A stretch of DNA of 64,000 nt from Bacteriovoracia bacterium (lineage in GTDB: Bacteria > Bdellovibrionota > Bacteriovoracia > Bacteriovoracales > Bacteriovoracaceae): the NCBI GenBank assembly GCA_046570105.1, contig JBKHVI010000002.1, positions 1 to 64,000 on the forward strand, given 5' to 3'. Below are positions 10,214-33,217 of the stretch, one piece after another. A model generated the notes under the pieces. That model saw nothing but the letters and a program-made list of their open reading frames with translations, was not told the DNA's origin and did not search any database. The position numbers and the translations under genes are program-made. Positions within the stretch are counted from its first letter, which is position 1, and each line of letters opens with the position of its first letter.

Positions 10214-10378
10214 TGAGAGTTAGATTTATATGTCCTCAAGAGCATAAAGCTTCCCCAAAAAAAGAGGGTAAGGTGTGAACATTTAACAAGGGTGTCGATC
10301 TTTTAGACACTTCCCCCACGACAAATCACGGGGCTAGACTGTTCAATCGTGGCCCTTTCCTTGCAGATTACCCCTCAT

Positions 10379-16610: not shown

Positions 16611-16701
16611 ATGTTCTATTGTAAATGAAACCATGACTTTTTTAAGTCTTTAGTCTAGCCTTCCGCTACTGATTCTCATCAATTTATTGCGGAGCAACAC
16701 C

Positions 16702-18132
16702 ATGCTCTTTAGAGTGCATGAAGATATAACCTCTGATTACGATGTTACGGTCATAGGGGCAGGCCTGGCGGGCATGACGGCGGCCAATATTTTGGGCCGC
16801 TTGGGCCTTAAAGTTCTTTTGCTCGAGGCCCACAACAAACTCGGCGGCTTTGCCACCTGGTTCTACCGTGATTCACGGCAACATGTTTTTGATATTAGTC
16901 TCCACGGCTTTCCTGCTGGCATGATCAAAACCTGTCGCAAGTACTGGTCCAAAGAAATTGCCGATAGCATCGTCCAACTCAAAGATGTGCGCTTTCATAA
17001 TCCGCAATTCTCAGTGCAAACCGAATTCACGAAAGAAGACTTTACTCAAAAACTCGTTGAACATTTTGGGCTCTCCCTTGAAACCGTTAATGCATTTTTC
17101 GCTCATTTGGCACAGATGAATTTCTATGATCAAAACCAAATGACCAACGGTGAGTTGTTCGAAAAATTTTTCCCAGGTCGTAACGACGTCACTCGCTTTT
17201 TGATGGAGCCGATCACTTACGCCAATGGCTCCACGCTTGATGATCCTGCTATTACTTACGGCATCGTCTTTTCCAATTTCATGTCGAAGGGTGTTTATAC
17301 ATTTAAAGGCGGCACTGACGTCTTGATTGCTAAGATGAAAGATGAGTTATTGAAAAATAACGTCGACATAAAACTTCAGGCCAAAGTTGAGAAGATCGTC
17401 ATTGAGAATGGCAAAGTTTCCGGCATTATTCACCGTGGGAAAAAAGTTAAGTCCCGTTCGGTCCTCTCTAACGGCAATATTCTCTCAACCGTTATGAATA
17501 TGGTTGGCCCTGAATACTTCAGTGAAAGTTTTGTAGAAAAAACTAAAGCGGTAAGACTCAATACCTCGAGCTGCCAAGTTTATATGGGCTTTAAAAAAGG
17601 CACTGTATTACCTGCGATGGGTGATTTGGTATTCACTAGTCTCTACCCGACTTATGAGCCTGAACGTCTCGTCGATCTCAAAGTCTCTTCTCGTACATTC
17701 TCAGTTTATTATCCTCATGAAACGCGCCCGCAAGACCCCGAGGCGCGCCCAGCGATCGTGTCTTCCACCAACTGCCGTTATGAGCATTGGAAAAACTTAT
17801 CACCTGAAGAGTATAAAAAAGAAAAAGCTTTTATGATCGAAGAAACGCTTAAAGGTCTGGAGGTGTATTATCCCGATCTGCGTGATAATCTCGAAACTGT
17901 GGAAGCTGCCACACCACTCACAGTTGAGCGCTACACCCTTCATCGCCAAGGCAGCTCTTTTGGAACAAAGTTTGAAGGCCTTGATGTCAGTATGAATCTA
18001 CACAAAGAATTACCCGGTCTCTTTCACGCCGGCTCAGTCGGCATCATTATGTCAGGCTGGTTAGGCGCAGCTAACTATGGTGTGATTCAGGCCAACGAAG
18101 TCGCTTCATATCTCGCAAAGGAATCGCTATGA
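16702..18132 (+). CDS. CrtI/phytoene-desaturase-like FAD oxidoreductase (paralogue A)
   Basis: VIGAGLAG...LEAHNKLGG FAD-binding motif; AATPLTVERYT; coupled to fab genes, with no crt genes in the window. Confidence 0.88.
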   Translation: MLFRVHEDITSDYDVTVIGAGLAGMTAANILGRLGLKVLLLEAHNKLGGFATWFYRDSRQHVFDISLHGFPAGMIKTCRKYWSKEIADSIVQLKDVRFHNPQFSVQTEFTKEDFTQKLVEHFGLSLETVNAFFAHLAQMNFYDQNQMTNGELFEKFFPGRNDVTRFLMEPITYANGSTLDDPAITYGIVFSNFMSKGVYTFKGGTDVLIAKMKDELLKNNVDIKLQAKVEKIVIENGKVSGIIHRGKKVKSRSVLSNGNILSTVMNMVGPEYFSESFVEKTKAVRLNTSSCQVYMGFKKGTVLPAMGDLVFTSLYPTYEPERLVDLKVSSRTFSVYYPHETRPQDPEARPAIVSSTNCRYEHWKNLSPEEYKKEKAFMIEETLKGLEVYYPDLRDNLETVEAATPLTVERYTLHRQGSSFGTKFEGLDVSMNLHKELPGLFHAGSVGIIMSGWLGAANYGVIQANEVASYLAKESL

Positions 18133-18866
18133 ATTTTACAGGTCAGCACGTCATCGTTACTGGTGGGACTCGTGGTATCGGAGCTGGGATTGCCGAAGCT
18201 TTCTTAAAAGCGGGTGCTCACGTGGTTTCAACTTATACTGGTAACACCGAAGCCGCCGAAAAATTCAAAGAGCGTTTAAAAGAATATGGCGATCGCATTT
18301 CTATCGCACGCTTTGATGTCGCGGATGAAAAAGCCATTGAAACATTTTTTGCTGAGCTTAAATTTCCTTCGGTGGAAATTTTGGTGAATAACTCTGGTAT
18401 CCGTCGTGACTCAATTATTGCCTCACTCAAAGAAGAAGATTGGGACCGCGTCATCGACACCAACCTTAAGGGCACATACCTCATGACCAAACATGCTGTG
18501 CTCGCCATGATGAAAAATCGCTATGGCCGCATCGTGAATATGAGCTCTATCGGTGGCAAACTGGGTCTTCCTGGACAGGCGAATTACGCCGCCTCCAAGG
18601 CCGGCCAGATTGCTTTGTCGCTGGTGACAGCGAAAGAAGTCGCGAAACGCAACATCACCATCAATAACATCTGCCCTGGCTTCATCGAGACAGAACTGAT
18701 TGCTGATCTGCCAGAGGAACAAGTCAAAGAATACAAGGCCCAAGTGCCGATGCGCCGTTTTGGCAAAGTCGAAGAAGTCGCTCATGCGGTGCTCTTCTTA
18801 GCTTCGAAAGAAGCGAGCTACATCACTGGTGCCACACTTGATATCGCTGGAGGCCTCAATGGCTAA
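18129..18866 (+). CDS. fabG: 3-oxoacyl-ACP reductase
   Basis: TGGTRGIG, NNSGI, GQANYAASK, PGFIET. Confidence 0.93.
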   Translation: MNFTGQHVIVTGGTRGIGAGIAEAFLKAGAHVVSTYTGNTEAAEKFKERLKEYGDRISIARFDVADEKAIETFFAELKFPSVEILVNNSGIRRDSIIASLKEEDWDRVIDTNLKGTYLMTKHAVLAMMKNRYGRIVNMSSIGGKLGLPGQANYAASKAGQIALSLVTAKEVAKRNITINNICPGFIETELIADLPEEQVKEYKAQVPMRRFGKVEEVAHAVLFLASKEASYITGATLDIAGGLNG

Positions 18867-19284
18867 TTTAGAAAAACTCCTCGCCCACATCCCTCAACGT
18901 CCGCCCTTCCTTTTACTCGATGGCATTGTCGATGAAACAGAAGGCCGAGTGACGACCTTTAAACAGCTGACAGGAAATGAGGATTGGTTCAAAGGACACT
19001 TTCCTGGAAATCCCGTCATGCCGGGAGTGCTCATGTGTGAAGCGGTTTTCCAAACCGGTGCTTATTTGATGGCCCGACGAGGAGAATCCAGCGAGGCCGG
19101 CAAAACGGCGGTGGTGACTCGTATTCAAGGGGCCAAATTTAAAAATATGGCAAAACCTGGTGATAAATTAATGATCACCGTGGACTTTATCGAAATGCTC
19201 GCCAATGCCGCTTTCATGAAAGGCAAAGTGGTGGTGGATGATAAAACTATTATGACCATTGAATTTGCCGCAGCGATTGTTTGA
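18859..19284 (+). CDS. fabZ: 3-hydroxyacyl-ACP dehydratase
   Basis: PQRPPFLLLD; FKGHFPGNPVMPGVLMCE (His/Glu dyad); GGAGG RBS. Confidence 0.92.
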   Translation: MANLEKLLAHIPQRPPFLLLDGIVDETEGRVTTFKQLTGNEDWFKGHFPGNPVMPGVLMCEAVFQTGAYLMARRGESSEAGKTAVVTRIQGAKFKNMAKPGDKLMITVDFIEMLANAAFMKGKVVVDDKTIMTIEFAAAIV

Positions 19285-19290
19285 GGTTCT

Positions 19291-20085
19291 ATGAGTTTTT
19301 TAGCACTAGAGAATAAAACTTTTTTGATTGCCGGTGTCGCTAATAAAAAAAGCGTTGCCTACTTTTCGGCTAAAACTCTTATTGAGGAAGGGGCACGTTG
19401 CATCTTCTCAGTGCAAAAAGAAGAACAGATCACACAAGTGAATAAACTTTTCCCCGGTGCACCAGTAGTTATTTGTGATGTGAGTAGCGAGGAGCAACTG
19501 AATGCTCTCCCCCATGCCATCCATCAGCACGCCGATCACATCGATGGAGTCTTGCACTCGCTGGCCTTTGCTAATTTTTCTGAAGGCCTCGTCGACTTTC
19601 ACCACACCAAACGCCATGACTATCTGGAGGCCGCTCAGATCTCGTGTTTTTCATTAGTGGAAATGTGCCGGGTGCTCAATCCCATGTTCACCAGTAACGC
19701 TAGCGTGGTCACCATTTCGATTTCCAACACTCGGGCCACCTCATATGGCTATTTGGGTCCGATTAAGGCCATGCTTGATGCCACTGTTCCCTATTTGGCC
19801 AAATCACTTTCTAAAGATTCTAAAATTCGTGTGAATGCTGTGGGTGCAGGACCTTTGAAGACATCGGCCTCGGCAGGTATTCCCAACTATATTGATAACT
19901 ATCTTTTTGCTGAGGCCCTCACACTAAGAAAGACGGCGCTTGAAACTCAAGAAGTCGCCAATACCGTCGCCTTTTTACTTTCGCCACGATCTTCTGGGAT
20001 CAATGCCACCACGGTTTTAGTGGACGCCGGCATGAGTTGTAATGGATTTGACCAAGAAGTGGTTAAGCGCTTCAATCGTGAATAA
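19291..20085 (+). CDS. fabI: Enoyl-ACP reductase (FabI-like)
   Basis: GVANKKSVA, HSLAFA, Y-x6-K (YGYLGPIK), RVNAVGAGPLKT. Confidence 0.9.
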   Translation: MSFLALENKTFLIAGVANKKSVAYFSAKTLIEEGARCIFSVQKEEQITQVNKLFPGAPVVICDVSSEEQLNALPHAIHQHADHIDGVLHSLAFANFSEGLVDFHHTKRHDYLEAAQISCFSLVEMCRVLNPMFTSNASVVTISISNTRATSYGYLGPIKAMLDATVPYLAKSLSKDSKIRVNAVGAGPLKTSASAGIPNYIDNYLFAEALTLRKTALETQEVANTVAFLLSPRSSGINATTVLVDAGMSCNGFDQEVVKRFNRE

Positions 20086-20692
20086 AACATCTAAAAATTT
20101 CGAAGACTTAGACCTTAATCACTTCCGATTCGCAAGTGTGATTAGCCTGCCAGAAAACTATGAAGTCTACGACTTCACTAAAGGCTATGACCCCAAACGC
20201 TCGATGCTTTCTGAATACGGCATTGGCCGCTACAACGAAGTTCGCCAAGGCATGTACACCACCGAACTCTTTGCCGGAAACCGCAATATCCATATGGGCA
20301 TCGACATCGCCGCTCCTGTTGGAACACCTATCACGAGTTTTTTCGAAGGTGAAATATTTATGTTCGCCTACAATGCTGCTGCCGGAGACTACGGACATAC
20401 CCTAATCACCAAACATGTCCTTGATGGCTGCGAACTCTACGCGCTCTATGGCCACCTCAATGAGGCCTCAACAAAAAATAAAACCGTAGGCCAACAGATC
20501 TCAACGGGTGAAGTGATCGCATGGGTGGGTGATAAGCATGAGAATGGCGGCTGGAATCCTCATTTGCATTTTCAATTATGTCTGGAAAAACCCATGGTGT
20601 GCGATATGCCTGGTGCCGTATCAAAGGATAATCTTGCCGCCGCTCTGAAAATCTATCCGGATCCTCAACGAGTCTTGGGTAAACTCTATTAA
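20078..20692 (+). CDS. M23 family peptidase-like protein without a signal peptide
   Basis: HMGID, YALYGHL, PHLHFQ; probable GTG start overlaps the fabI stop (alternative start 20042). Confidence 0.85.
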   Translation: MNKTSKNFEDLDLNHFRFASVISLPENYEVYDFTKGYDPKRSMLSEYGIGRYNEVRQGMYTTELFAGNRNIHMGIDIAAPVGTPITSFFEGEIFMFAYNAAAGDYGHTLITKHVLDGCELYALYGHLNEASTKNKTVGQQISTGEVIAWVGDKHENGGWNPHLHFQLCLEKPMVCDMPGAVSKDNLAAALKIYPDPQRVLGKLY

Positions 20693-22137
20693 AGCTTAAA
20701 GTCACGACAGGGATTTGCTCCAGTCGCGGTCGAGCGTTTATAAAGCATGTCATAAACCTTTCTTTGGGCCAAACCAACTTCCACTGCTAAGACATGTGTT
20801 TCTTGCTGGCGCATAGGATATTTCTTCCAGAAATCTTGAATTTCTGCCAACTCAGGATATTGTTCTAAAAGCTGACTTCGTCTTTTTTTAGCATTCTCAA
20901 TATTGGCGGCAGTAGCAGCTGCTTGGGCGGCATCTTGGCCTTTGAGTTTTGTGGACTGGCCCTTAAAGTAATCCTGCATTCGATCGAATTCTAGAGTAGC
21001 TAATTGTGCTCCATTATATTTGACACAACTTTGCTCACGCTTAATTTTCTTCAGAGGATTGGCCTTAATTTCAGTACAAAACTCAGTCTCTTTAAGGGCC
21101 ACATCAAAGCGCGCCTTTCTCATGTCAGCACGCAACTTTGCCAGATAATCATAGTAATTCACGACTCCAGCATGAAACTCACGTAATGTTCGTTCGGACT
21201 CTCCCCCATCAGCAACTTTTAATAAGTTTTCAACTTCGCGAATGAGAGCGGCTAAATGATTTTCAGGAGCGCAATGGTTAGTGTCTTTAATTTCTCTCTC
21301 TAAAAAAGCTGTCTGCTTATCAGAATTTGGATTGTAATAATATAAGTAAGGACTAATCGCCTCATACAAGCGAGATTGTACATCACCACCTTGCGGAGAT
21401 GAGATCATCGGAAAGCCAAAGTCTGCGTAGTTCACTCTTGCCTCAAGAAAGACTTCTTCTAAATTTCTGCCAGGAGCTAAAGCAGCATTAAAGCGGCCAG
21501 CGAAATTTGCAATCCCACCGCCATAAGCATAGTGCTCAGGACCGGTACTGGAGATGACACATGTTCCAGGATACTGTTTGGCCAAATTAAGTGTATTACC
21601 AGAGTGACAAGACAAATCAATCACGGCCAACTTAACACCTTTCTGTTGGGCCAGTTCCGCAATTTTCTTTAATTTATCGAGAGAAACGACAGAAGTTCCC
21701 ACATTATTGTAATTCGAAAGTGCCCCTTCAGCAGTGGCAATCTGATGGGTCATCTCCAATACCGGATTACGTGTGGCCCCATGGGTGTTGATATGAACCA
21801 TTAATTGATCACCAGATTTCAACTCACCACTCAGTAGCTTTTTTTCATAGGCATCAAGTAGTTTATTGTAATTGGCGGTGGTAAAAGTCTGTCCGACAGG
21901 ATTATAAGTCCCAAAATATTGGCCCGCAATTTTTTCTGTTTCACTGTGGCCGCCATTAAAGACTAGACTCGTTTCCCAATGGGGTGCTTTTTTCTTAAAA
22001 TCACCGACTAAACTTAAATCAAGATCAAACATTGTTTTAGGTGCATTACGAGGCTCTCCCCCACCACCTAAAATAAGCATATGGTTCTTCGCCCAAACAT
22101 TTGAACATATAAGAAACACGAGAAAAAACCATTTCAT
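20689..22137 (-). CDS. Secreted protein with a caspase-like (clan CD) His-Cys dyad
   Basis: Signal peptide MKWFFLVFLICSNVWA; VHINTHG and VIDLSCHSG. Confidence 0.65.
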   Translation of the reverse strand: MKWFFLVFLICSNVWAKNHMLILGGGGEPRNAPKTMFDLDLSLVGDFKKKAPHWETSLVFNGGHSETEKIAGQYFGTYNPVGQTFTTANYNKLLDAYEKKLLSGELKSGDQLMVHINTHGATRNPVLEMTHQIATAEGALSNYNNVGTSVVSLDKLKKIAELAQQKGVKLAVIDLSCHSGNTLNLAKQYPGTCVISSTGPEHYAYGGGIANFAGRFNAALAPGRNLEEVFLEARVNYADFGFPMISSPQGGDVQSRLYEAISPYLYYYNPNSDKQTAFLEREIKDTNHCAPENHLAALIREVENLLKVADGGESERTLREFHAGVVNYYDYLAKLRADMRKARFDVALKETEFCTEIKANPLKKIKREQSCVKYNGAQLATLEFDRMQDYFKGQSTKLKGQDAAQAAATAANIENAKKRRSQLLEQYPELAEIQDFWKKYPMRQQETHVLAVEVGLAQRKVYDMLYKRSTATGANPCRDFKL

Positions 22138-22466
22138 AAACACGCTTCTTCTTTTTTTAGGCGTAGAAATGAATTCTGAACGGGATTGAGAGGATTTGGT
22201 AGAGCATAATCAAGCTTGATGAAATCGACTGCATCACCTTCACGAGGCTCAATCATTTTACTAATTCTTAATTCACCTTGAACCATTAAATCCACATAAG
22301 GTGCGAGCTTCATCTGTTCACTCATCGCTGGATAAAGAATGAATTGCGACAAACTTTTTTCGTTCAAAACGACTTGCATTTGATCCTCCACGATACGTGG
22401 AGTTCCTTTAAATTCATAAGTGCCACATTGAGCGAAAGCGAGAGTCGAGAAAAATAACCAAAGCAT
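22134..22466 (-). CDS. Small secreted hypothetical protein
   Basis: Short signal peptide; translationally coupled to both neighbours. Confidence 0.65.
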   Translation of the reverse strand: MLWLFFSTLAFAQCGTYEFKGTPRIVEDQMQVVLNEKSLSQFILYPAMSEQMKLAPYVDLMVQGELRISKMIEPREGDAVDFIKLDYALPNPLNPVQNSFLRLKKEEACL

Positions 22467-24253
22467 TAGTAAGCTACCTTTAATACTTCATCGAGTGTCG
22501 TAACGCCTTCAATGATTTTGCGAGCACCATTCACTCGCAATGGCGTGAACAGGCCACGGGTCTTTTCTTTTAATTCTGTTATTTCTACTTTCGGATGAAT
22601 AACTCTTTTAATCTTATCGTTGAACTTCACCAATTCATAGACACACAAACGACCTAGGTAGCCGGTATGTTTGCATTCATCACAACCACGTGCCTCAAAA
22701 ATTTTCTCTGGCATAGGAAGTTCTTCCCCATCAAGCAAAGTCTCCCACTTACTTTCATCTGTTGGGACTTCTGCTTTGCAGTGAGAACATAACTTTCTAA
22801 CCAATCGTTGCGCCAGAATTCCAGATAATGATGAGTTGATAAGAAATGTCGGAAGGCCTAAGTCAATCAGTCGCTGTATGGTGGCCAGCGCACCATTGGT
22901 ATGAAGCGTACTAAAGACCAAGTGGCCAGTAAGTGAACTTTGAATCGCCATTTCACCAGTAGCAAGATCACGAATCTCGCCCACCATAATCACATCGGGA
23001 TCTTGTCGCAAGAAAGCACGAATACATTCCGCAAAATTAAGGCCGATTTGAGGATTTACTTGCACTTGGTTAAAGGTATCTACTTCCATCTCAATCGGAT
23101 CTTCCGCAGTACAAACGTTCACATCTGGTGTCGCGACAATACTAAGAGTCGTATAAAGCGTTGTTGTTTTACCTGAACCTGTTGGACCGGTCACAAGAAT
23201 GAGGCCTTGTGGTTCATGGATCATGGTTTGCCAAGTGAAAAGGTCATCAGGTAAAAAACCAATGAACGAGAGATCTTGTCCTTGGACTTGCTTATCAAAA
23301 ATACGAATAACCAGTTTTTCACCAAAGGCAGTGGGAAGTGTTGATAAGCGCATCTCAACACTTTTGCCGCTATCCATTTGACGCTTCAAACCGCCGTCAA
23401 GAGGCTTGCGTTTTTCATCAAGCTTCATATCTCCCAGGATTTTGAAGCGGGAGACAATCATCATAAGAATTTCATGATCTAAGCGATAAACTGTGCGCAG
23501 CTCTCCATCTACACGGAAGCGCACGAGACCCAGACCTTTTTTAGGTTCAATATGAATATCTGAGGCACGCTCCATAACGGCATAATTAATCAGCCAATCA
23601 ACAATACGGGCAACAGAGCTATCTTGTGGGCCGGTATTCTTCGCGCGTGAAGTTTCAACCAGCTTATCAAGCTCGTTGATTTTCCCCTGGCGCATAAGCT
23701 TGATTTTTTCGTCGCCCGACTTTCCTTGCTCACGTGAAACACTCTTGAGTGCTTTTTGCACCACAAAGACTTCATTCAATAAATGACGAATTTGCGCTGG
23801 TGTCGATAATTTGAGTTGAATTTTTCGCTTGGTTTGAGCTGCTACTTCATCAATCCAATCGGTCACTAATGGCTCACTGGTGGCAATCACTACATGAGTC
23901 GGAGTCACCTCTACGGGGACAATTCCTAAGCGTTCGGCATAGGGGCCAGGGATTAGAAACGAGATTGAATCTAAATTGATGTTGAGTGAATCAAGCCGCA
24001 AATAAGTAAGATCAAAAGATTTCGCCACTGTTTGTGCCAGTTCATCATAGGAAAGTTTTTTACCTACAATTCTACGATCAGCTAACGAAATTCCCTGCAA
24101 AAGCTGGAGAGGGTGTTCTTTAGAAGAGGCCCATTGTTTTTGGATTAACTCCAGTTGGCCTTGAGTAATAAGGCCTGCATCGAGCAGAGGCTTGAGCACA
24201 TCAAGCTGGCCTAGTCTTTGTTCAGCAAAATGTGTTTTTCTTAAAGTGGTCAT
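22466..24253 (-). CDS. GspE/PilB family secretion or pilus ATPase
   Basis: ASDIHIEP, GPTGSGKTT, EDPIE, LRQDPDVIMVGEIRD, STLHTN, CSHC/CDEC zinc motif. Confidence 0.95.
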   Translation of the reverse strand: MTTLRKTHFAEQRLGQLDVLKPLLDAGLITQGQLELIQKQWASSKEHPLQLLQGISLADRRIVGKKLSYDELAQTVAKSFDLTYLRLDSLNINLDSISFLIPGPYAERLGIVPVEVTPTHVVIATSEPLVTDWIDEVAAQTKRKIQLKLSTPAQIRHLLNEVFVVQKALKSVSREQGKSGDEKIKLMRQGKINELDKLVETSRAKNTGPQDSSVARIVDWLINYAVMERASDIHIEPKKGLGLVRFRVDGELRTVYRLDHEILMMIVSRFKILGDMKLDEKRKPLDGGLKRQMDSGKSVEMRLSTLPTAFGEKLVIRIFDKQVQGQDLSFIGFLPDDLFTWQTMIHEPQGLILVTGPTGSGKTTTLYTTLSIVATPDVNVCTAEDPIEMEVDTFNQVQVNPQIGLNFAECIRAFLRQDPDVIMVGEIRDLATGEMAIQSSLTGHLVFSTLHTNGALATIQRLIDLGLPTFLINSSLSGILAQRLVRKLCSHCKAEVPTDESKWETLLDGEELPMPEKIFEARGCDECKHTGYLGRLCVYELVKFNDKIKRVIHPKVEITELKEKTRGLFTPLRVNGARKIIEGVTTLDEVLKVAY

Positions 24254-24343
24254 ACTGAGTTCTCCCCAGAAGACTTATCGGCTTGTGATAAAAAATGTTT
24301 TCCTCTCAGGTACACTTTTCTGCGATTATGATAGAATTTTTTT

Positions 24344-25342
24344 ATGAAAGTCTCAGATATCCTCGCTGGGCTCTCCCGAGATGAGCTGCAATCTGTACTC
24401 GCGAAGTCGGATGTTCGTGGTTTACTCACGCTAGGGATCAATTACTTGCTCATATTGGGGTGTTTCACTCTGGTTTATCGCTATCCGACGATGTTCTGGT
24501 CTTGGTTATTGGCGACTATTATTTTAGGCAATCGCCTTCTAGGCCTTGCGATTCTGATGCATGATTGTGCTCACGGCTCACTTTTTAAATCTCCCAAACT
24601 GAATAAAGTTTTTGGAAAGTGGCTGTGTGCTGCTCCTGTGATGGCAGATTTGGATCGTTATAGAACCTATCATCTTGAACATCATCGCACCGCCGGCTCC
24701 AGTGAAGATCCGGATCGTTCTAACTACCAAGGCTATCCTGTTACTGCAGGGAGTATGGTGAGGAAATTATCTCGTGATTTGATAGGCCTGACAGGTGCCA
24801 AGATTTTTCTGCTCGTACTAAAAATGAATGCCGGTACGGTTAAATACCAGCTCTCTTACGATGCTAATAAAAAATCTGCCGGCATTCCTCTCTCACAACA
24901 AATCGCTAATATTTTTCGTGGCCTTTATCCCACCTTGCTTATTCACACCACACTCTTCTTATGCTGTTGGCTGATTGGGCGCCCATCCCATTATCTTCTT
25001 TGGTGGCTCGCCTGGATGACTTGGTACATGGTGTTTAGTCGAATTCGTAATGCCGCCGAACATGGCGCAACGATTGACATCAATGATCTAGACCCCTTAA
25101 AAAATACCCGCACAACTCTGGCAAACTTTCTGGAGCGTCTGACTGTCGCTCCCAATTATGTGAACTACCATTTAGAGCATCACCTACTCGCAACAGTGCC
25201 ACCCCATAAGCTAAAGGCCTTCCATCGTCTCTTAATGAAAAAAGATGTGCTCCAACATTCCAAAATTGCGAGTGGCTATTTAGAAGTTATGTCTGACTTG
25301 GTGGCGACGGCACCAAGAGATGGCGATAAGTCTCACGTCTAG
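24344..25342 (+). CDS. Membrane fatty acid desaturase family protein
   Basis: His boxes HDCAH, HLEHH and HLEHH; TM helices. Confidence 0.9.
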   Translation: MKVSDILAGLSRDELQSVLAKSDVRGLLTLGINYLLILGCFTLVYRYPTMFWSWLLATIILGNRLLGLAILMHDCAHGSLFKSPKLNKVFGKWLCAAPVMADLDRYRTYHLEHHRTAGSSEDPDRSNYQGYPVTAGSMVRKLSRDLIGLTGAKIFLLVLKMNAGTVKYQLSYDANKKSAGIPLSQQIANIFRGLYPTLLIHTTLFLCCWLIGRPSHYLLWWLAWMTWYMVFSRIRNAAEHGATIDINDLDPLKNTRTTLANFLERLTVAPNYVNYHLEHHLLATVPPHKLKAFHRLLMKKDVLQHSKIASGYLEVMSDLVATAPRDGDKSHV

Positions 25343-26318
25343 AAAATAAACGAGACAATCCTTCATCTATGCTGATCTGGGGATTAAACCCTAACTCACG
25401 TTCTGCTTTGGCATGTGAGAACCAGTGATCAGTTCCCATATTGAGTGCCACAAAACGAGTGACAGGTGGCTCAGGTGAATAAATACCGGCAATTTTCCAG
25501 AGATTTTCAAATATATTTCCCATGAAAGTTGCCATGCCCAGACTGATATTCTGATCTGGTAATGGTGCCTCGGCATGTCTTAGGACTTTTTCAATGAAAT
25601 CCCACAATCTTACTGGGCCCTGGCCTAAAAAATAAGTTTGTCCATTCACAACCGAACCCGGCGCGAGTTTTTCAAGTGCTAGCACATGGGCCCGTGCTGC
25701 TTCTTCCACGTAAATCACATCGACTTGGTTCTCACCTGAGCCGACAATTTTTAATTTTCCTAAACGTGCTTGATTCACTACGCGAGGAATGAGGTTCTGA
25801 TCCCCTGGCCCCCAAATGAGATGAGGACGAAGTGCGACGGTAAAAAACTCAGAGCTATTAGCGGCCAAAACGATCTTCTCAGCAGCAGCTTTGGTACGAG
25901 GATAATGCGCCAAATGTTTTTCAGGATAAGGCAGAGATTCGTCGGCGCCTTGATGGCCACCACGGCCAAAGACACTACTAGGAGAGCTGGTATAGACAAA
26001 CTTCTTCACACCAAATTTTTTAGCGATCTCCAGCAAGTTTTGGGTTCCCTGGATATTAATACGATCAAATACTTCTCGCTTCCCCCACATACCAACTAAT
26101 GAAGCCACATGTAAGATGGCATCAAAGCCCTGAGAGAGAGCATGTTCTACGTCAGCAGCGTGAGTAATATCACCACGAATAGTCGGCACACCCATTTCTT
26201 CTAGATGTTCGTAGTTATGACGAGAAAAATTAGTAACAAGGTAGGTTGGATTTTTAAGTAACTCTTTAATAATCCATGTGCCTAAAAAGCCCCCACCACC
26301 TGTAACGAGAATTTTCAT
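25287..26318 (-). CDS. oleD: 2-alkyl-3-oxoalkanoate reductase OleD (3-beta-HSD-type SDR)
   Basis: TGGGGFLG, YTSSPS, YPRTK, LRPHLIWGPGD; last gene of the oleABCD run. Confidence 0.9.
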   Translation of the reverse strand: MKILVTGGGGFLGTWIIKELLKNPTYLVTNFSRHNYEHLEEMGVPTIRGDITHAADVEHALSQGFDAILHVASLVGMWGKREVFDRINIQGTQNLLEIAKKFGVKKFVYTSSPSSVFGRGGHQGADESLPYPEKHLAHYPRTKAAAEKIVLAANSSEFFTVALRPHLIWGPGDQNLIPRVVNQARLGKLKIVGSGENQVDVIYVEEAARAHVLALEKLAPGSVVNGQTYFLGQGPVRLWDFIEKVLRHAEAPLPDQNISLGMATFMGNIFENLWKIAGIYSPEPPVTRFVALNMGTDHWFSHAKAERELGFNPQISIDEGLSRLFSRRETYRHLLVPSPPSQT

Positions 26319-27898
26319 TGATGTGCCTCTTGGATCTGACGACCTAGTGCCTCGCGATCAATTTTTATATTGTGACGAACATCCACAGGAAAATCTTTAT
26401 GAACAAAAAAATCCTGTATCTCTTTAGCATACTCTGATTGCTGACCTAGTGCCTTGAGCTCAGCTTTGATTTTATTTTCATCGGTGGGTACTTTAAGTTC
26501 CACTACAATTGAAGGTCGCTTCTTATAGTGCACTAAAGCACTTCGCAAAACTAAAGGATGCTGATTAAAAATGGCTTCCACTTGAATGGGGTAAAAACCA
26601 TTCACCACATGATTCTTGCGTCCACAAAACCATATACGGCCTTCGGCATCTTTATAACCCACATCACCCATACAATGTGCAAGGCCCTGTGGTGTTGCAA
26701 TTTTCGCCAAAAGAGTTGCCTCCTCTCTTTCAAAATATCCCGGTGTAACAGTCGAACCTCTGACAACAATTTCACCAATCTCACCCGTCGCAAGTTCGAT
26801 GATTTCACTCTTTGGAATATCCGAAGCCTTAATGATGAAAACTTCATTGGTTAGAGAAGGCCTACCAATACAAACTCCCGCACCTTTTTTGGTTTTCTCC
26901 CAGGTTTCACTCAAAATTTCTCTTCCGCTAATACAACTCACTGGCAGACATTCTGTCGCACCATAAGGAGTATAAGTCGTTCCATCGGTGAGTATCGGCG
27001 CCCACATCTCATGAATCTCTCCCCGCACCGGTGCTCCAAACATCACAACATATTTTAATTTTGGCAGAGTAATTTTTTGCTCACGACAAAAGCGTCCTAC
27101 TCTCTCCCAAATGGCGGGAGAGCCGGCAGCAAAACTGATATTCTGTTCAAGTAAGGTCCGCACCAATTTCGCCGGATCACAATGAGCAGGCCTTGTCGGA
27201 TCCATATCAGGAATCACACTGGTCATTCCCATCGCAAGCGTAAATAGTGCGAACAAAGGAAAACCCGGCATATCGATTTCATTTTCATTGAGTGAAAATA
27301 AATCTCTCAACATCTCCGTCTGCGCTCGCAAAATGCCATGAGTCGTAACGACACCTTTAGGAGTGCCAGTGCCACCGGAAGTAAAAAGAATGGCGGCAGG
27401 ATCGGTGTCTTTGGCATCGTAGAGGGAAATATCAGCTGGGTAAGCATCAAGCTTATTAAATAAATGGGGTGCCAATAAAATATTTTTCTCAGTCGAGAAG
27501 GCCCATTTAACTGAAGAGAATGTCGGAATAAAAATACGACGTAACAAATGAACGAGATTAACTCCGATCAATCCGACCGGGCGTACTTCTTTAATTGCTC
27601 GCAATAGATTCTTACGTCCCATACCTGGATCAATCAAAACCGGCACGGCCCCAAGCTTAAAAAGCGCAAAGGTAATGACGGAAAAGTCGAGACTGGGACG
27701 AACAAACAATAAAACACGATCGCCCACTTTAACTCCCTTGCGTGAAAGTCTTGCGGCAATTTGTTGAGAACGTCGCTCAAACTGAGCAAAAGTATAAAAC
27801 GGATAAGTATTGCCTTGTCCCCCTGCCACTGTCATGACGACAGATTTTTTCTCGGGATAGCGCTCAGCTTGTTCTTGAATGAGGCGGGCGATATTCAC
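26315..27898 (-). CDS. oleC: Olefin beta-lactone synthetase OleC (AMP-forming)
   Basis: LIDPGMG, ILFTSGGTGTPKG, FPLFALF, PYGATECLPV, FPVDVRHNIKI. Confidence 0.92.
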   Translation of the reverse strand: MNIARLIQEQAERYPEKKSVVMTVAGGQGNTYPFYTFAQFERRSQQIAARLSRKGVKVGDRVLLFVRPSLDFSVITFALFKLGAVPVLIDPGMGRKNLLRAIKEVRPVGLIGVNLVHLLRRIFIPTFSSVKWAFSTEKNILLAPHLFNKLDAYPADISLYDAKDTDPAAILFTSGGTGTPKGVVTTHGILRAQTEMLRDLFSLNENEIDMPGFPLFALFTLAMGMTSVIPDMDPTRPAHCDPAKLVRTLLEQNISFAAGSPAIWERVGRFCREQKITLPKLKYVVMFGAPVRGEIHEMWAPILTDGTTYTPYGATECLPVSCISGREILSETWEKTKKGAGVCIGRPSLTNEVFIIKASDIPKSEIIELATGEIGEIVVRGSTVTPGYFEREEATLLAKIATPQGLAHCMGDVGYKDAEGRIWFCGRKNHVVNGFYPIQVEAIFNQHPLVLRSALVHYKKRPSIVVELKVPTDENKIKAELKALGQQSEYAKEIQDFFVHKDFPVDVRHNIKIDREALGRQIQEAHQ

Positions 27899-28755
27899 CG
27901 GGTTCTCCCAATGAAATTCACCATGCTTTCAATCGCCTTCTTCGGCGCATCTTCTAAAACATAGTGGCCAGCATCGGCAATCCAATGGGCCTCAGCATCG
28001 GGATAAATCGAGAGCCATTTTTCAAAGAAGCCACGATTAAAGCAGAAATCTTTTCCGCCCCAAACAATCAATTTTGGCACGGTGACTTTAGGCAAATCAT
28101 TTTCAATTTTCTGGAGCGTCTTCCATGATGGATGTTTGTTATCGAGAGGAATGTCTTGCACGAAGCGCGACACCGCCACACGATTTTTCCAAGAGTCATA
28201 GGGCGCGAGGTACGCCTTCTTCACTTCAGAACTCAAGCCGCGCTTGGAGGCCATAAAAGTAGCAGGCCATGCAAAACCGTTGAGGCCGCGCACCAAAAAT
28301 TCACCAAAGCGCCCGGCCTTACAAATGGCGATACGCTTAGGAATGTCTTCACTTAAAAACGCCGCAGTATTAAGTACGATCACTCGTTTAATCAAATGTG
28401 GATGACGTGTAGCAAATCCCATCCCAATCGCACCACCCCAATCATGCACGACGAGTGTAATATCTTTAAGCTGCAAAAAGCTCACGAGTTTTTCAAGATT
28501 CTGAATATGATTTTCTAAGGTGTAAGAGTAATCCTGGGGTTTATCAGAAAAGCCACAGCCCATATGATCAGGAACCACACAGCGAAAATGTCCACTGAAG
28601 GCCTTGATGAGGTGGCGATAATAAAATGACCAAGTGGGATTACCGTGCACCATAAGCATCGCCGGCCCTGTGCCCTCATCAACATAATTTAAGTTCAATC
28701 CTTCGAGACCCAAAAAATGATGGCGCCAAGGATAGAGTTCGGTTGAAACTTTCAT
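27895..28755 (-). CDS. oleB: Beta-lactone decarboxylase OleB (haloalkane dehalogenase fold)
   Basis: HGNPTWSFYYR, VHDWGG, WGGKDFCF, AGHYVLED. Confidence 0.92.
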   Translation of the reverse strand: MKVSTELYPWRHHFLGLEGLNLNYVDEGTGPAMLMVHGNPTWSFYYRHLIKAFSGHFRCVVPDHMGCGFSDKPQDYSYTLENHIQNLEKLVSFLQLKDITLVVHDWGGAIGMGFATRHPHLIKRVIVLNTAAFLSEDIPKRIAICKAGRFGEFLVRGLNGFAWPATFMASKRGLSSEVKKAYLAPYDSWKNRVAVSRFVQDIPLDNKHPSWKTLQKIENDLPKVTVPKLIVWGGKDFCFNRGFFEKWLSIYPDAEAHWIADAGHYVLEDAPKKAIESMVNFIGRTR

Positions 28756-29768
28756 GTCATCTCCATAGCGAGCATTGTTGAAACGAGCCCTGATCCGATT
28801 CCCGTCAAGGCGACCTTATCGCCTGCTTTAAGTACACCTGCCTCATGAGCTTTTGAGAAAGTCAGAGGAAGGGCCGCCGAACCGGTGTTACCAAATTGAT
28901 CAAAAGTGACATAATCAGGAATATTTGTGGCGGCGAGTGCTTCGAGAAAACCACGCCGATGAGTGGAACCGACTTGATGAGGAATGATTTTATTTGCTCG
29001 TGGAAACTCTAAGAGATACTGCTGCCAAGTTTTTTGTGCCAAGGCCACACCACGCTTCATCAATTCTTCTGAATCTGTTTCCATGACGAGCTCTTCCAGA
29101 TTCCCTGAACCCTGACAAAGTTCCACGGCACTGGAATCAGTCAAACTCACGCCACCTAAAATCTTAGGCGCGCTTACCGCGAGACTCTCATGCGTTAAAA
29201 GCCAAGCAACCCCAGCAGAACCAATCGTCAAAGAGGCGATATATTTTTTAATCGACTGACGAGTAATCGTCAGATCATCTTTTAAAATTTCTAACGTGCG
29301 CAAAAGCAGAGGTCCAGAATTCTCCCCTGAAACAATCAAGGCCGCTTTAATAACTCCCGCTTCAATCATTTGTGAGGCCATGAGAGTGGCAGTCACTACT
29401 CCTAAACAAGCATTGGAGAGATCAAACAACTGACATTGAGGTGAGAGTTTTAAATTTTTATGAACCACACTGGCGGTGGCCGGTTCTAAAAAATCCCGGC
29501 AGACAGAGGCATGAATTAAAAGACCAATCTCAGAGCGCGGGAATGTTCCAAGTGCTTTTTCTGACGCCATGGTAGCAATCTCAGAAGGACGAGTGCCTCG
29601 AGGCCAGTACCCCCTGCGATTAATTCCCGTTTGTAATTCCAGGCGACCTTCGGGCAATTTCAAGCGCTCATAGGTGGCACCCAAGTGTTTTTCAATTTCA
29701 GTGCTAGTCAAAAAATGACTAGGTTCTTGGTAAGCATGGGAATGTAAACGCACACTTTGAAACTTCAT
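28752..29768 (-). CDS. oleA: Acyl-CoA:acyl-CoA alkyltransferase OleA (KAS III fold)
   Basis: DFLEPATA (catalytic Glu), SNACLG (Cys), PHQVG (His), GNTGSA, GIGSGL. Confidence 0.92.
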   Translation of the reverse strand: MKFQSVRLHSHAYQEPSHFLTSTEIEKHLGATYERLKLPEGRLELQTGINRRGYWPRGTRPSEIATMASEKALGTFPRSEIGLLIHASVCRDFLEPATASVVHKNLKLSPQCQLFDLSNACLGVVTATLMASQMIEAGVIKAALIVSGENSGPLLLRTLEILKDDLTITRQSIKKYIASLTIGSAGVAWLLTHESLAVSAPKILGGVSLTDSSAVELCQGSGNLEELVMETDSEELMKRGVALAQKTWQQYLLEFPRANKIIPHQVGSTHRRGFLEALAATNIPDYVTFDQFGNTGSAALPLTFSKAHEAGVLKAGDKVALTGIGSGLVSTMLAMEMT

Positions 29769-31162
29769 GTCGCCTCTCCCATGAGTCCGTGGAGATTGGC
29801 CATAGAAATACCAGAGAGCATGGCACCGACAATCCCTAAGAAGCCTTGATCAGTTCCGATAATAAAAAGATTATCCACTGGTGTGCGGCCATCGCGGGTT
29901 TTATCAATGGAGCCATAAACTGTGCCATCAAGATGCCAGGTATAGCGCTCGATGGTGGTAGGAGAAAACACATCGGTAAAACGTAACTCACCATTAAATT
30001 GAGGATAGAGCTTTTTCAATAGATCACGCGCGCTCTGGGCGACTTCTGCTTTCTTTGCTTCATAAGGTGTGCGCTCAAGCTCACGCCACTGAGAATAATT
30101 CGCCATATAAGTGATGCGAAGAGTGCCTTCGCCTTGGCGGTTCGCTATTTCGTAATTATCTGGCAAACACACCACCGCTGATTGAGCATCAAAGTAATTC
30201 TCAGCAGGACGATACTTGTATTGATTTGCGTTGTTGTAGAAAACAATGGTCTCGGGTGTTTCGATCTTACGATCAAACACAAAAATGCTCTCGAGAAAGG
30301 TCATCTTCCCCACACGAGGTTTGACCGCAAAAAGATTATCCTCCAGGCGCAGAACTGTTTCAGGCAGACCCATGCTAGAGAAAATTTTAGGCGCCATCAG
30401 TTCTTCGCCACTATCGAGCTTTACGCCAATCGCTTTTGACCCATCAGTTAGGATTTTTCCAACTGATGCTTTAAAGCGCAGCTCTCCGCCACACTCGAGA
30501 TATTTATCGACTAAAAGTTTAATGATACGACGGACGCCCCCTTCGGGACGAGCAAAGCCTTCAAAGTAAAGTGACTTGAACATAATCACAAACTGCGCGA
30601 AATCCATATCTTCTTCCCACGCCGATCCATAGATCAGCAACGGGCACAGAATCATCTCGAGAAGCATTGGATCAGTGATGATCTCAGCCAATCGCGCGCG
30701 GGTTGATTGATAACCAAGTGACAGATCAAGTTCATTGAACTCACGAACGATGTTCACAAGTTTTGCAAATTCATCTTTTTGATGCGGAAACTGATCAGCG
30801 ACTTCGCTACTCAACAACTCAAAGTCGTTTGAGAATTTCAATTGATGATCAGGAAAATGAATCACTGAATGTGTCTGGGGATGAAGTTTAAAATCATCCC
30901 ATGAGAGACGCAGTTGTTTGAGAAGTTTAGAGAAGGGTTTGCCCTTCTCACCTTTTTTAATGAAATTGGTGAGGGCATGGAGTCCCACATCAAATTGGCG
31001 AATACCGCCCTCTTCAAAATTTCGTCTTTGGTAATAAGAGTTGAGTCCACCGGGAATGCTGTGCTTTTCAAGCACAACAACGCGCTTACCAAACATGGCA
31101 AGACGAATCCCGGCGGCCAAACCTGACATGCCGGCCCCGATGATAATCGCATCATGGGCCAT
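29765..31162 (-). CDS. CrtI/phytoene-desaturase-like FAD oxidoreductase (paralogue B)
   Basis: IIGAGMSG...LEKHSIPGG; FSPTTIERYT; lies between ACP and oleA, with an ATGA overlap. Confidence 0.88.
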   Translation of the reverse strand: MAHDAIIIGAGMSGLAAGIRLAMFGKRVVVLEKHSIPGGLNSYYQRRNFEEGGIRQFDVGLHALTNFIKKGEKGKPFSKLLKQLRLSWDDFKLHPQTHSVIHFPDHQLKFSNDFELLSSEVADQFPHQKDEFAKLVNIVREFNELDLSLGYQSTRARLAEIITDPMLLEMILCPLLIYGSAWEEDMDFAQFVIMFKSLYFEGFARPEGGVRRIIKLLVDKYLECGGELRFKASVGKILTDGSKAIGVKLDSGEELMAPKIFSSMGLPETVLRLEDNLFAVKPRVGKMTFLESIFVFDRKIETPETIVFYNNANQYKYRPAENYFDAQSAVVCLPDNYEIANRQGEGTLRITYMANYSQWRELERTPYEAKKAEVAQSARDLLKKLYPQFNGELRFTDVFSPTTIERYTWHLDGTVYGSIDKTRDGRTPVDNLFIIGTDQGFLGIVGAMLSGISMANLHGLMGEAT

Positions 31163-31167
31163 GTCAG

Positions 31168-31413
31168 TTACTGCATCTTAGGTGTGAGGTAGCTCACGCA
31201 AGAGGCCATGGTGGCAAGCTTCGGATAGTCTTCAGCTGGCACTTCAACCTTGTGGCGCTTACGAAGTTCCATGACGATATCCAAAAAGTCCATTGAATCG
31301 AGATCGATTTGCTCGCGCAATGAAACTTCGTCTTTGATTCCTGCCAAATCTTCATCTGGAGCGATGTCGCTGATGATATCGAGAACAACTTGGCGTACTT
31401 CATCTGTAGTCAT
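31168..31413 (-). CDS. acpP: Acyl carrier protein
   Basis: Acidic 81-aa protein; LDSMDFLDIVMEL phosphopantetheine Ser; AAGGAG RBS. Confidence 0.93.
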   Translation of the reverse strand: MTTDEVRQVVLDIISDIAPDEDLAGIKDEVSLREQIDLDSMDFLDIVMELRKRHKVEVPAEDYPKLATMASCVSYLTPKMQ

Positions 31414-31423
31414 GAACTTCTCC

Positions 31424-32659
31424 TTAAACGTCAAACTTCTTAACAATTAAAGCTGAATTGATACCCAACATCCCAAATGAGTTGTTGAGAATAGTTTTTA
31501 CTTCTTTTTTGATTGGCGTGTGCAGCACTAATCCCGGAATTTCACAGGCCGGATCAAGCTCTTGCACATTGATACCTGGGTGAACTTGGCCATCCCAAAG
31601 CGATGGAATATTACCTGCGAGTTCAAGCGATCCAGCGGCACCCATCGAGTGGCCGATGTGCCCCTTGGTGAAATTCACCGATGTCTTATTTGATTCTGAA
31701 AACGCCACACGTACTGCTTCTGATTCAGAAATATCACCGGCGCCTGTGCCTGTGGCATGCATATTTAAAATATCAATATCGGCCGGCTTCATTCCGGCAC
31801 GACGAAGAGCTAAGTGCATGCACTGCACTTGGCGCTCAGGATTGGGATTCACAAAATCAGAGGCATCAGAATTGACCGCCCAACCAGCGATCTCAGCAAC
31901 AATATGAGCTCCACGTTTTTGCGCATCTTCTAAGCGCTCAAGCACATAAATGCAGCCACCTTCTGAGATGGCAATACCCGTGCGAGACTTGCAAAGTGGA
32001 CGTGATGATTTGGTGGGATCTTCATGATTAGCAAGCGCACCTTGAGCAGCAAAAGCGGCGTAGATACCAAAGGTCTGCGGTGATTCGGAAACACCTCCGC
32101 AAAGAGCGACATCAACTTCACCTAAAATGAGTTGTTGAGCACCGGCGATGATGCCGACGTTGCCACCAGCGCAAGCTGCACCCAAAGTATAATGCGGTCC
32201 TGTGATGCCCATATTGAGCGTTACTTCACCGGCAGGATTATTGGCAACCGTGCGAGGATTGTGGTGTGGTGACCACAACTTCCAGTCGAGATTATTTTGG
32301 TGCATCTCGAAGATTTCATTTTCAGTTTCCACGTTGCCGTGTTCAGTGATGCCTAAGAAAACACCGACGCGAGATTTATCAACATTTTCCCAATCAAGTT
32401 TGGCGGAAGCTTTCGCTTCATTCGCACACCAAATAGAAATACTTCCGGCGCGCGTACCACGACGACGCATTTTTTTATTTTGATATTTGAATTCATCAAA
32501 TTCACAGAGGCCCGCCACTTGTGAACCCATGTAACGAATCTCTGTGTGTTTTAGTCCAGAGACTCCGTTCAACAAGGCTTCTCGAAAACTCTCCAAAGAA
32601 TTACCATTCGGTGCTGTGAGCCCAATCCCTGTGATAACGATTCTTTGCTGCTGTGCCAT
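31424..32659 (-). CDS. fabF: Beta-ketoacyl-ACP synthase (FabF/FabB-like, divergent)
   Basis: IVITGIG, AACAGG (Cys), NMHATGT (His), KGHIGHSMGAAG (His), NNSFGMLG. Confidence 0.92.
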   Translation of the reverse strand: MAQQQRIVITGIGLTAPNGNSLESFREALLNGVSGLKHTEIRYMGSQVAGLCEFDEFKYQNKKMRRRGTRAGSISIWCANEAKASAKLDWENVDKSRVGVFLGITEHGNVETENEIFEMHQNNLDWKLWSPHHNPRTVANNPAGEVTLNMGITGPHYTLGAACAGGNVGIIAGAQQLILGEVDVALCGGVSESPQTFGIYAAFAAQGALANHEDPTKSSRPLCKSRTGIAISEGGCIYVLERLEDAQKRGAHIVAEIAGWAVNSDASDFVNPNPERQVQCMHLALRRAGMKPADIDILNMHATGTGAGDISESEAVRVAFSESNKTSVNFTKGHIGHSMGAAGSLELAGNIPSLWDGQVHPGINVQELDPACEIPGLVLHTPIKKEVKTILNNSFGMLGINSALIVKKFDV

Positions 32660-32818: not shown

Positions 32819-33217
32819 ATGGAAAACCTTATCGTCATTTCGAAAGTTAAAAAGTTCATCAAAGAGAAGGCAGATTTCAATACTTCTGCTGGCTTCTTTG
32901 AACCATTGAACGAGGATGTGGTGAAAAGCTGTCGTGACGCTGTGGCGCATGCACAAAAGCTTGGCCGCAAAACTGTTATGGGCAAGGACTTCAACCTCTA
33001 CGTAGAGGGCAAAGAAAATGAAGAAGCTCTGGTAGTCACGAGCAAAGTTAAAAAACTCATCAAGGACGAAGCAGGGCTTTCAACCTCTTCTCAGGCGATC
33101 GAGCAATTAACAGTACGAGTTCAGACTATTTGTATGAAAGCGATTGAAAACGCGAAAGCCGATCGCCGTAAAACAGTTATGGACCGTGATTTCACAGCTC
33201 CAACGACTTTGACCTAA
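32819..33217 (+). CDS. Bacterial histone: tandem doublet of two Bd0055/HBb-like folds
   Basis: Two internal repeats, LIVISKVKKFIKE..NTS..RKTVMGKDF and LVVTSKVKKLIKD..STS..RKTVMDRDF; GGAGAG RBS before ATG 32819. Confidence 0.9.
   Translation: MENLIVISKVKKFIKEKADFNTSAGFFEPLNEDVVKSCRDAVAHAQKLGRKTVMGKDFNLYVEGKENEEALVVTSKVKKLIKDEAGLSTSSQAIEQLTVRVQTICMKAIENAKADRRKTVMDRDFTAPTTLT

Follow-up and report, generated by a model that had tools for sequence, protein, structure and literature searches.

The window analysed here, a 64,000-nucleotide (nt) stretch (positions 1 to 64,000) of contig JBKHVI010000002.1 from a Bacteriovoracia bacterium of the Bdellovibrionota family Bacteriovoracaceae (assembly GCA_046570105.1; 3.0 Mb, 88% complete), holds between positions 16702 and 32659 a module of eleven genes in which discrete fatty acid synthesis (fab) genes and two CrtI-fold flavoproteins, A and B, accompany oleABCD. 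The module is read, with moderate confidence, as a type II (dissociated) acyl synthase that is reserved for the Ole pathway and takes the place of the Pfa polyunsaturated fatty acid (PUFA) synthase. Its gene set is independent of housekeeping fatty acid synthesis, it is tied to oleA, and its occurrence is complementary to that of PfaA; it is a real and conserved acyl-supply module of the Ole pathway that probably works like a Pfa synthase. That the module feeds OleA is very likely, and a polyunsaturated product is probable; a role of the flavoproteins as in-cycle isomerases, rather than as desaturases or reductases, is a tentative suggestion. The synthesis of C31 polyene hydrocarbons in pfa-less bacteria has been a standing question since 2009, and the locus offers eleven small genes as a compact list of parts, in a family that has members in culture.

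Gene set and independence from housekeeping fatty acid synthesis

A sequence-only reading of the window had described eleven genes in two tightly coupled arms with intact catalytic residues, and coordinates, families, junctions and residues were all confirmed from open reading frame (ORF) positions together with Pfam and NCBIfam profile scans. Arm 1, on the plus strand, begins with flavoprotein A (16702..18132; 476 amino acids (aa), CrtI/CrtISO/RetSat fold, PF01593, best NCBIfam matches far under cut-off) and continues with a FabG-like ketoreductase (18129..18866; NF009466 at 248.5 bits, cut-off 222), a FabZ-like dehydratase of a module-specific subtype (18859..19284; NF000582 at 115.3, cut-off 113), whose ORF opens at GTG 18829 with an ATG at 18859, and a divergent FabI-like enoyl reductase (19291..20085; best FabI model 178 bits, under cut-off). 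The junctions are a 4-nt overlap, an 8-nt overlap and a 6-nt gap. Arm 2, on the minus strand, begins with a module-specific FabF-type ketosynthase (31424..32659), a dedicated acyl carrier protein (ACP; 31168..31413, PF00550) and flavoprotein B (29765..31162; 465 aa, fold as in A, PF01593), separated by gaps of 10 and 5 nt, and runs on through four 4-nt overlaps into oleA, oleB, oleC and oleD. The catalytic residues are kept in the enzymes checked: Cys-His-His in FabF, the Ser of DSM in ACP, Ser/Tyr/Lys in FabG, His/Glu in FabZ and Tyr/Lys in FabI.

The oleABCD homologs are adjacent and in order. They encode the head-to-head condensing enzyme OleA (28752..29768; NF006720 at 358, cut-off 285), an OleB-like alpha/beta hydrolase, or beta-lactone decarboxylase (27895..28755; haloalkane dehalogenase-family matches, placed between oleA and oleC), an OleC-like beta-lactone synthetase (26315..27898; NF006754 at 558, cut-off 478, with two OleC models next) and an OleD-like reductase (25287..26318; top matches the OleD models NF042422 and NF042423). 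The models specific to the Xanthomonas and Shewanella lineages were best or near-best but below cut-off, at 460/900 and 413/850 for OleC and 336/580 and 302/580 for OleD. The Glu, Cys, His and Asn of OleA are conserved in 24/24 aligned sequences, and by its gene set the eleven-gene module is a predicted member of the Ole pathway. In a quick tree the window OleA groups with family members; Pfa-linked OleA forms a long branch of unsure placement, and the tree is therefore not used to order events. A recent arrival in this genome by transfer was rejected on the grouping with family members and on GC content, which is 0.42-0.48 in the cluster and 0.446 in the genome.

A separate housekeeping fabH-fabD-fabG-acpP-fabF cluster, in which fabH, fabD and fabF all exceed their cut-offs, lies on contig C16. 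Because this cluster exists, the module is independent of the housekeeping fatty acid synthase (FAS), and its fab genes are a second FAS-II set, as the sequence-only reading had held. On model TIGR03150 (cut-off 494) the C16 FabF reaches 600 bits and the window FabF 286; with the separate cluster, this led to rejection of a housekeeping role for the window genes. Identity to the Verrucomicrobiota module copies is 61-64% for FabF, 62-68% for ACP and 50-55% for FabI, against 32%, 28% and 29-33% to the respective paralogs in the same genome. The module proteins also share distinctive positions: in counts that take in near-duplicate ORFs, FabZ has E-x-x-F-Q in 104/104 module ORFs (Ala at that place in the genome's paralogs and in the PDB chains shown), and FabF has a TEHG motif in 90/90 and Met instead of the usual Phe after S(F/S)G in 87/90. 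The altered FabF and FabZ positions presumably line acyl pockets.

The absence of a pfa PUFA synthase, of crtB and of radical S-adenosylmethionine (SAM) genes, also claimed from the window, held on a wider view. In the assembly, at its 88% completeness, the PfaA model matched only single discrete fab genes, PfaA was not found, and phytoene synthase (PF00494) had no match, the control search being positive in 8/14; radical SAM genes gave 27 matches in the genome and none on contig C2, to which the window belongs. No FabA was over cut-off in the genome, and flavoprotein A had no match among plasmid sequences. Scans for promoters and terminators gave signals no better than chance. A third FAS-II-like cluster (G000:C3:36274-50857, L175) was observed as well; it has fabI, three short-chain dehydrogenases/reductases, a fabZ-like gene, a short degenerate ketosynthase (KS) beside an intact FabF and a Tes/TrsS-like radical SAM gene, with a B12-type radical SAM gene 3 kb off, and it resembles the lipid clusters with radical SAM genes in anammox bacteria and deltaproteobacteria.

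Gene order in relatives and metagenomes

Gene order was compared in 60 genome loci, found with flavoprotein B, and in the best 80 of 574 metagenome loci. In 53 of the 55 genome loci with room, oleA is the next gene after B, both exceptions being Verrucomicrobiota, so this adjacency is more than chance. The gap between oleD and fabI measures 0-5368 nt in the 27 loci that reach both genes and is at most 70 nt in 11 of them; in G113 (L084) all eleven genes lie on one strand. Two loci of another family (L075, L076) have fabF-ACP-B-A-fabG-fabZ-fabI divergent from oleABCD, and six Verrucomicrobiota loci have fabF-ACP-B-(insert)-A-fabZ-fabI-oleA-oleB. The arms co-occur and are contiguous as one operon elsewhere, in agreement with what had been expected of them. 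In the window they lie 5.2 kb apart with unrelated genes between; they are one unit split by a family-level rearrangement, and the two-armed layout, which had been presented as a feature of the system, is not one.

The commonest order outside the window is fabF-ACP-B-A-fabG-fabZ-fabI, often with a phosphopantetheinyl transferase (PPTase). In the metagenome loci B stands directly before A in 46 (40/57 with room), and the gene after A is fabG in 54 and fabZ in 11 of the 75 with room (65/75); an ole gene is in view in 15 of the 21 wide loci. A neighbour family recurs in 18 metagenome loci, and the four members scanned (4/4) are PPTases; of 46 loci with room after fabI, 15 have a PPTase-like gene as the next one, and a FabD-like gene follows in three. 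Across the 80 metagenome loci the module has no recurrent neighbour that is an electron-transfer partner, an acyltransferase or a thioesterase. The separation of the arms in the window could suggest that housekeeping fab genes, genes for carotenoids and oleABCD came together by chance; that explanation has next to no probability, being refuted by the separate housekeeping cluster, the failure to find phytoene synthase, the order conserved across phyla and the gene fusions described below.

Several variants and one additional gene were noted among these loci. In L104:3054-8463 and L105:3034-8408 the flavoprotein pair is preceded by a tandem oleA-fabF-ACP-oleA-fabF, and no oleBCD is visible; this duplication may give two chain types. 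At L117:8455-16914 flavoprotein A only lies between ACP and fabG, followed by oleABC. A winged-helix protein of 205-215 aa with MarR/TrmB/ArsR-like matches, a candidate regulator, has its gene immediately 5' of the module fabF in loci from three Bdellovibrionota families (L084:6116-6754, L075:9268-9915, L076:8066-8680, L083:12059-12700) and is absent from that place in the window.

Distribution and complementarity with Pfa

Among 161 Bdellovibrionota genomes surveyed, 40 match flavoprotein A; once six weak matches (E above 1e-17) were dropped as non-orthologs, 34 orthologs remained (E below 1e-160), namely this genome, 31/32 of its family and two in another family. All 34 have oleA, and none of the 34 has a PfaA-model match at E<=1e-100; the two Bdellovibrionota genomes that do have such a match have neither A nor oleA. 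B was found in 45/60 family genomes in a draw spread over genera. Given these family counts, the view that the cluster is unexpected in a predatory Bdellovibrionota does not stand. As a separate observation, oleABCD with neither the module nor PfaA is seen at L082:75-4595 (G010) and in five more genomes of family f6, which are small genomes.

In the Verrucomicrobiota (151 genomes), A and B occur in the same 31 genomes and oleA in 31, of which 30 are shared. A and oleA lie within 10 kb of each other in 11 of the 30, A and B in 6 of the 31, and in G219 three module pieces lie 0.5-1.3 Mb apart on one contig; linkage alone therefore does not account for the co-retention. Over the two phyla 64/65 A-holders have oleA, and the link to Ole drawn from the window therefore holds in both. 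The sole Verrucomicrobiota genome with oleA but without A and B, G235, has a PfaA that passes its cut-off; the pfaA and pfaBC genes there lie immediately upstream of oleA (L077).

These counts also bear on the explanation in which the module replaces FabA/FabB and supplies unsaturated membrane fatty acids without oxygen, the ole link being secondary. The lack of a FabA over cut-off in this genome and the 6/21 wide metagenome loci without a nearby ole gene are in its favour. It is nonetheless very unlikely, as nearly every A-holder has oleA, 120/151 Verrucomicrobiota do without the module, and neither an acyltransferase nor a thioesterase recurs beside it.

Flavoproteins A and B

A and B are 21% identical and homologous across their full length, and both keep GxGxxG and the C-terminal FAD motif. 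Their predicted models have mean confidence (pLDDT) values of 86.8 and 90.8; the best fold match of both is 4rep, for A with Z 30.0, root-mean-square deviation 3.4 and 433 aligned residues, for B with a template modelling (TM) score of 0.74. Among the fold matches of A, 2b9w, the Propionibacterium acnes fatty acid isomerase, ranks 41. By fold and FAD motifs A and B belong to the CrtI-fold flavoprotein superfamily, at 14-18% identity to its solved CrtI, CrtD, CrtISO and RetSat members. Both fall below the CrtI model TIGR02734 (67.6 and 55 bits, cut-off 238) and the CrtISO model TIGR02730 (93.9 and 115.4 bits, cut-off 587). A carotenoid-gene assignment was rejected, as every carotenoid family cut-off is missed widely and phytoene synthase was not found in the 88% complete genome.

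Two fusions join module proteins: P0274 (988 aa, two contigs) joins B to A, at 40% and 56% identity, and P0122 (625 aa, one contig) joins A to a FabZ that is 49% identical to the window FabZ. The search for longer forms of B gave one match among 7879 candidates, and complex prediction for A with B scored 0.00 in both runs, a result that speaks neither for nor against a pair. A search of representatives returned mostly fragments, with no named anammox or Desulfotalea members among them, and no characterised enzyme is among the names of the atlas look-alikes of the flavoproteins; several of these look-alike clusters are commonest in Planctomycetota, which is a lead only.

Proposed function

In the proposed mechanism, chain elongation on the dedicated ACP would be the work of FabF, FabG, FabZ and FabI. 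FabZ would in some rounds deliver its trans-2-enoyl-ACP not to FabI for reduction but to A or B, with A taking the FabZ product directly, and the flavoproteins would set a cis double bond without oxygen, one by a 2-trans to 3-cis shift and the other by 2-trans to 2-cis. The likely product would be a methylene-interrupted C16 polyenoyl-ACP such as 16:4n-3, which OleA would condense head-to-head and OleD, OleC and OleB would finish to a C31 polyene hydrocarbon of the C31:8/C31:9 type. As derived in this analysis, 16:4n-3 from acetyl would take rounds of reduce, 3-cis, 2-cis, reduce, 3-cis, 2-cis, reduce, a pattern that would account for the keeping of both flavoproteins and FabI. A and B are assigned the cis-setting steps because the module is a Pfa-like kit without FabA-type domains, it has two extra flavoproteins, and Pfa takes the place beside oleA in G235. 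CrtISO and the P. acnes fatty acid isomerase are known examples of flavin enzymes that isomerise with no net redox change. The proposed steps would match those of the FabA-type domains in Pfa synthases, where the trans-2-enoyl intermediate is reduced or isomerised to 2-cis or 3-cis and both 2,2- and 2,3-isomerisation are required (PMC4882568, PMC9702510).

A and B could instead be true flavin desaturases within an unchanged pathway to an unchanged product: they would oxidise acyl-ACP, saturated or mono-unsaturated, by passing electrons to quinone or another external acceptor, and the geometry would be set by FabZ or other enzymes. The best fold and profile matches of A and B, the gamma-carotenoid desaturase 4rep and CrtI 4dgk, are what this would lead one to expect; it was proposed by Rattray et al. 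in 2009 (PMC2649909), and FabX is a flavoprotein that both dehydrogenates and isomerises acyl-ACP (PMC8626469). CrtI-type enzymes, however, extend conjugation beside existing double bonds, a limit conceded in PMC2649909; no electron-transfer partner recurs beside the module in the metagenome loci, and the A-FabZ fusion suits an in-cycle hand-over. Desaturation is therefore considered unlikely, if a serious contender. Rather less likely still is that OleA receives some other special chain, a conjugated polyene or one trimmed in a RetSat-like way (for example by 1,4-reduction of a 2,4-dienoyl-ACP), and that the end product is an olefin, ketone or beta-lactone other than C31:9. Here one may cite the label all-trans-retinol 13,14-reductase that some sources give to family members, about ten metagenome loci with oleA alone before fabF and no adjacent oleBCD, and the altered pockets of KS, dehydratase (DH) and enoyl reductase (ER) alike; the complementarity with Pfa in G235 and the C31 polyenes of a pfa-less organism with such genes instead indicate the same slot as Pfa, and the chain-length factor (CLF) of polyene type II polyketide synthases (PKS) is absent.

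A number of points weigh against the module as an Ole-dedicated, Pfa-like synthase with isomerising flavoproteins. Eight of the 42 Bdellovibrionota genomes with oleA have neither A nor PfaA, so OleA needs neither; of these eight, four were examined, one (G146) having the module fabF-ACP at a contig end and three being without it. G237 has A and B with oleA not found, G210 has A and B plus a weak PfaA-model match, six wide metagenome loci show no ole gene nearby (above), and the L117 cluster has no B inside. The replacement of the module by Pfa rests on one genome, each fusion is one record, and kin genomes are not independent, hence no p-value is given. The solved folds nearest to A and B belong to carotenoid desaturases and not to isomerases. 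Isomerisation is also within the reach of a Glu-type FabZ, as in Enterococcus FabN, and the module FabZ, which has the unusual Phe, could perform one such step itself. Pfa-like clusters are present in the C31:9 producers Gemmata obscuriglobus and Planctomyces limnophilus (PMC3098273); C31:9 is common in Planctomycetes (PMC6995999, PMC7397252), and in view of those clusters its presence there alone is no pointer to the module. No lipid or enzyme-assay report was found for organisms tied to the module by sequence.

The dissociated synthase remains the favoured reading. Its boldest form, held with clear reservation, is a third polyunsaturated acyl route: a type II PUFA synthase, dissociated throughout, whose two CrtI-fold flavoproteins, perhaps as a pair, would act as acyl-ACP isomerases alternating 2-trans to 3-cis and 2-trans to 2-cis. 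Bacteriovoracaceae and Verrucomicrobiota would hold it widely, as probably would Planctomycetota. Were this true, a route made of discrete enzymes would join the desaturase/elongase and Pfa routes and be simpler to investigate and engineer than a megasynthase. It would also matter for where the lipid marker C31:9 comes from, and would open a first way to approach the related flavoproteins in the ladderane clusters of anammox bacteria. Placing cis double bonds on acyl-ACP would, if the flavoproteins do so, be new chemistry for the CrtI fold.

Neighbouring genes

The insert between the arms (20042..25342) holds an M23 peptidase, two ORFs of unmatched function, a PilB/GspE-type ATPase and a membrane desaturase, and lies outside the system. 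The desaturase ORF (PF00487; 24344-25342, +) and oleD meet tail to tail, their ends sharing 56 nt. Reading the desaturase as a part of the cluster was rejected: it stands beside the module in 0/60 genome loci and 0/80 metagenome loci, a close ortholog occurs in 1/60 other family genomes, and it is a local insertion, patchy in the family. Three ORFs of 484-515 aa have no Pfam or NCBIfam match (20689-22143, -; 15087-16634, -; 10349-11884, +), the second resembling a multi-pass membrane protein. Divergent from fabF lies a gene for a two-repeat bacterial histone-fold protein (32819-33217, +; E 1.7e-14 to PDB 8cmp/8fvx), matched in 43/60 genome loci at 60-91% identity and probably a neighbour in Bacteriovoracaceae only.

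Comparison with known systems

In a literature search, with most subscription journals outside its coverage, no description or test of the module with ole genes was found. Carriage of ole genes as such is known in Verrucomicrobia, Planctomycetes and Deltaproteobacteria (PMC7158056, PMC10176705), and the OleA of Halobacteriovorax marinus was active in a screen (PMC7064751). Compared with OleABCD of Xanthomonas and Shewanella, the module has the ABCD order, the OleA catalytic residues and OleC/OleD models among its best NCBIfam matches, but its OleC and OleD stay under those cut-offs and it adds its own KS, ACP, ketoreductase (KR), DH, ER and two flavoproteins. With CrtI, CrtD, CrtISO and RetSat, A and B share the fold and FAD motifs, whereas family cut-offs are missed widely, phytoene synthase was not found and the context is one of fab genes.

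The anammox ladderane-candidate cluster (amxACP, amxFabZ, a FabF heterodimer, the phytoene dehydrogenase-like kuste3607 and a B12 radical SAM protein) likewise has a private ACP, FabZ and FabF beside a CrtI-like flavoprotein. The module differs in having no degenerate second FabF, no radical SAM gene, two flavoproteins and ole genes, and was rejected as a ladderane cluster on its one intact FabF and the lack of radical SAM matches on contig C2; the match of the module FabZ to its top PDB chains is level with that to E. coli-type FabZ (82 vs 80 bits). The anammox homologs kuste3336/3607 are without CrtI activity (PMC4790861) and, in the accessible text of later sources, still without an assigned function (PMC10139942, PMC13459092, bioRxiv 10.64898/2026.05.19.726425).

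The core idea was raised earlier for Desulfotalea psychrophila, which makes C31:8 and C31:9 without a PKS-type synthase and for which an anaerobic PUFA route was proposed from the PF01593 genes DP1860, DP2405 and DP2406 in FAS-II clusters (Rattray et al. 2009, PMC2649909). As in the module, phytoene-dehydrogenase-like genes lie among FAS-II genes, two with adjacent locus tags, in a pfa-less organism; the available portion of that paper, however, names no OleA link or head-to-head condensation and mixes the locus with radical-SAM clusters, and the likeness is one of description only. The claim that the window fab genes form a feed for Ole is upheld as to the dedicated set and the tie to Ole; its core has been in print since 2009, in that text without the Ole link.

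The Pfa synthases of Shewanella, Photobacterium and Geobacter bemidjiensis share with the module the slot beside oleA (L077), the kit of KS, ACP, KR, DH and ER, often a PPTase and sometimes a malonyl-acyl transferase (MAT). In Shewanella and Photobacterium, OleA draws 16:4n-3 chains from the Pfa synthase's ACPs and condenses them to C31:9 (PMC6463001). Identity with a Pfa synthase was rejected, as the module consists of discrete genes and the PfaA model matches only single fab genes; Pfa is a multidomain type I enzyme with tandem ACPs, a KS-CLF and a FabA-type DH, whereas the module comprises discrete proteins with one ACP and one KS, no CLF and no FabA-type domains, FabI in the place of PfaD, and two flavoproteins that Pfa lacks.

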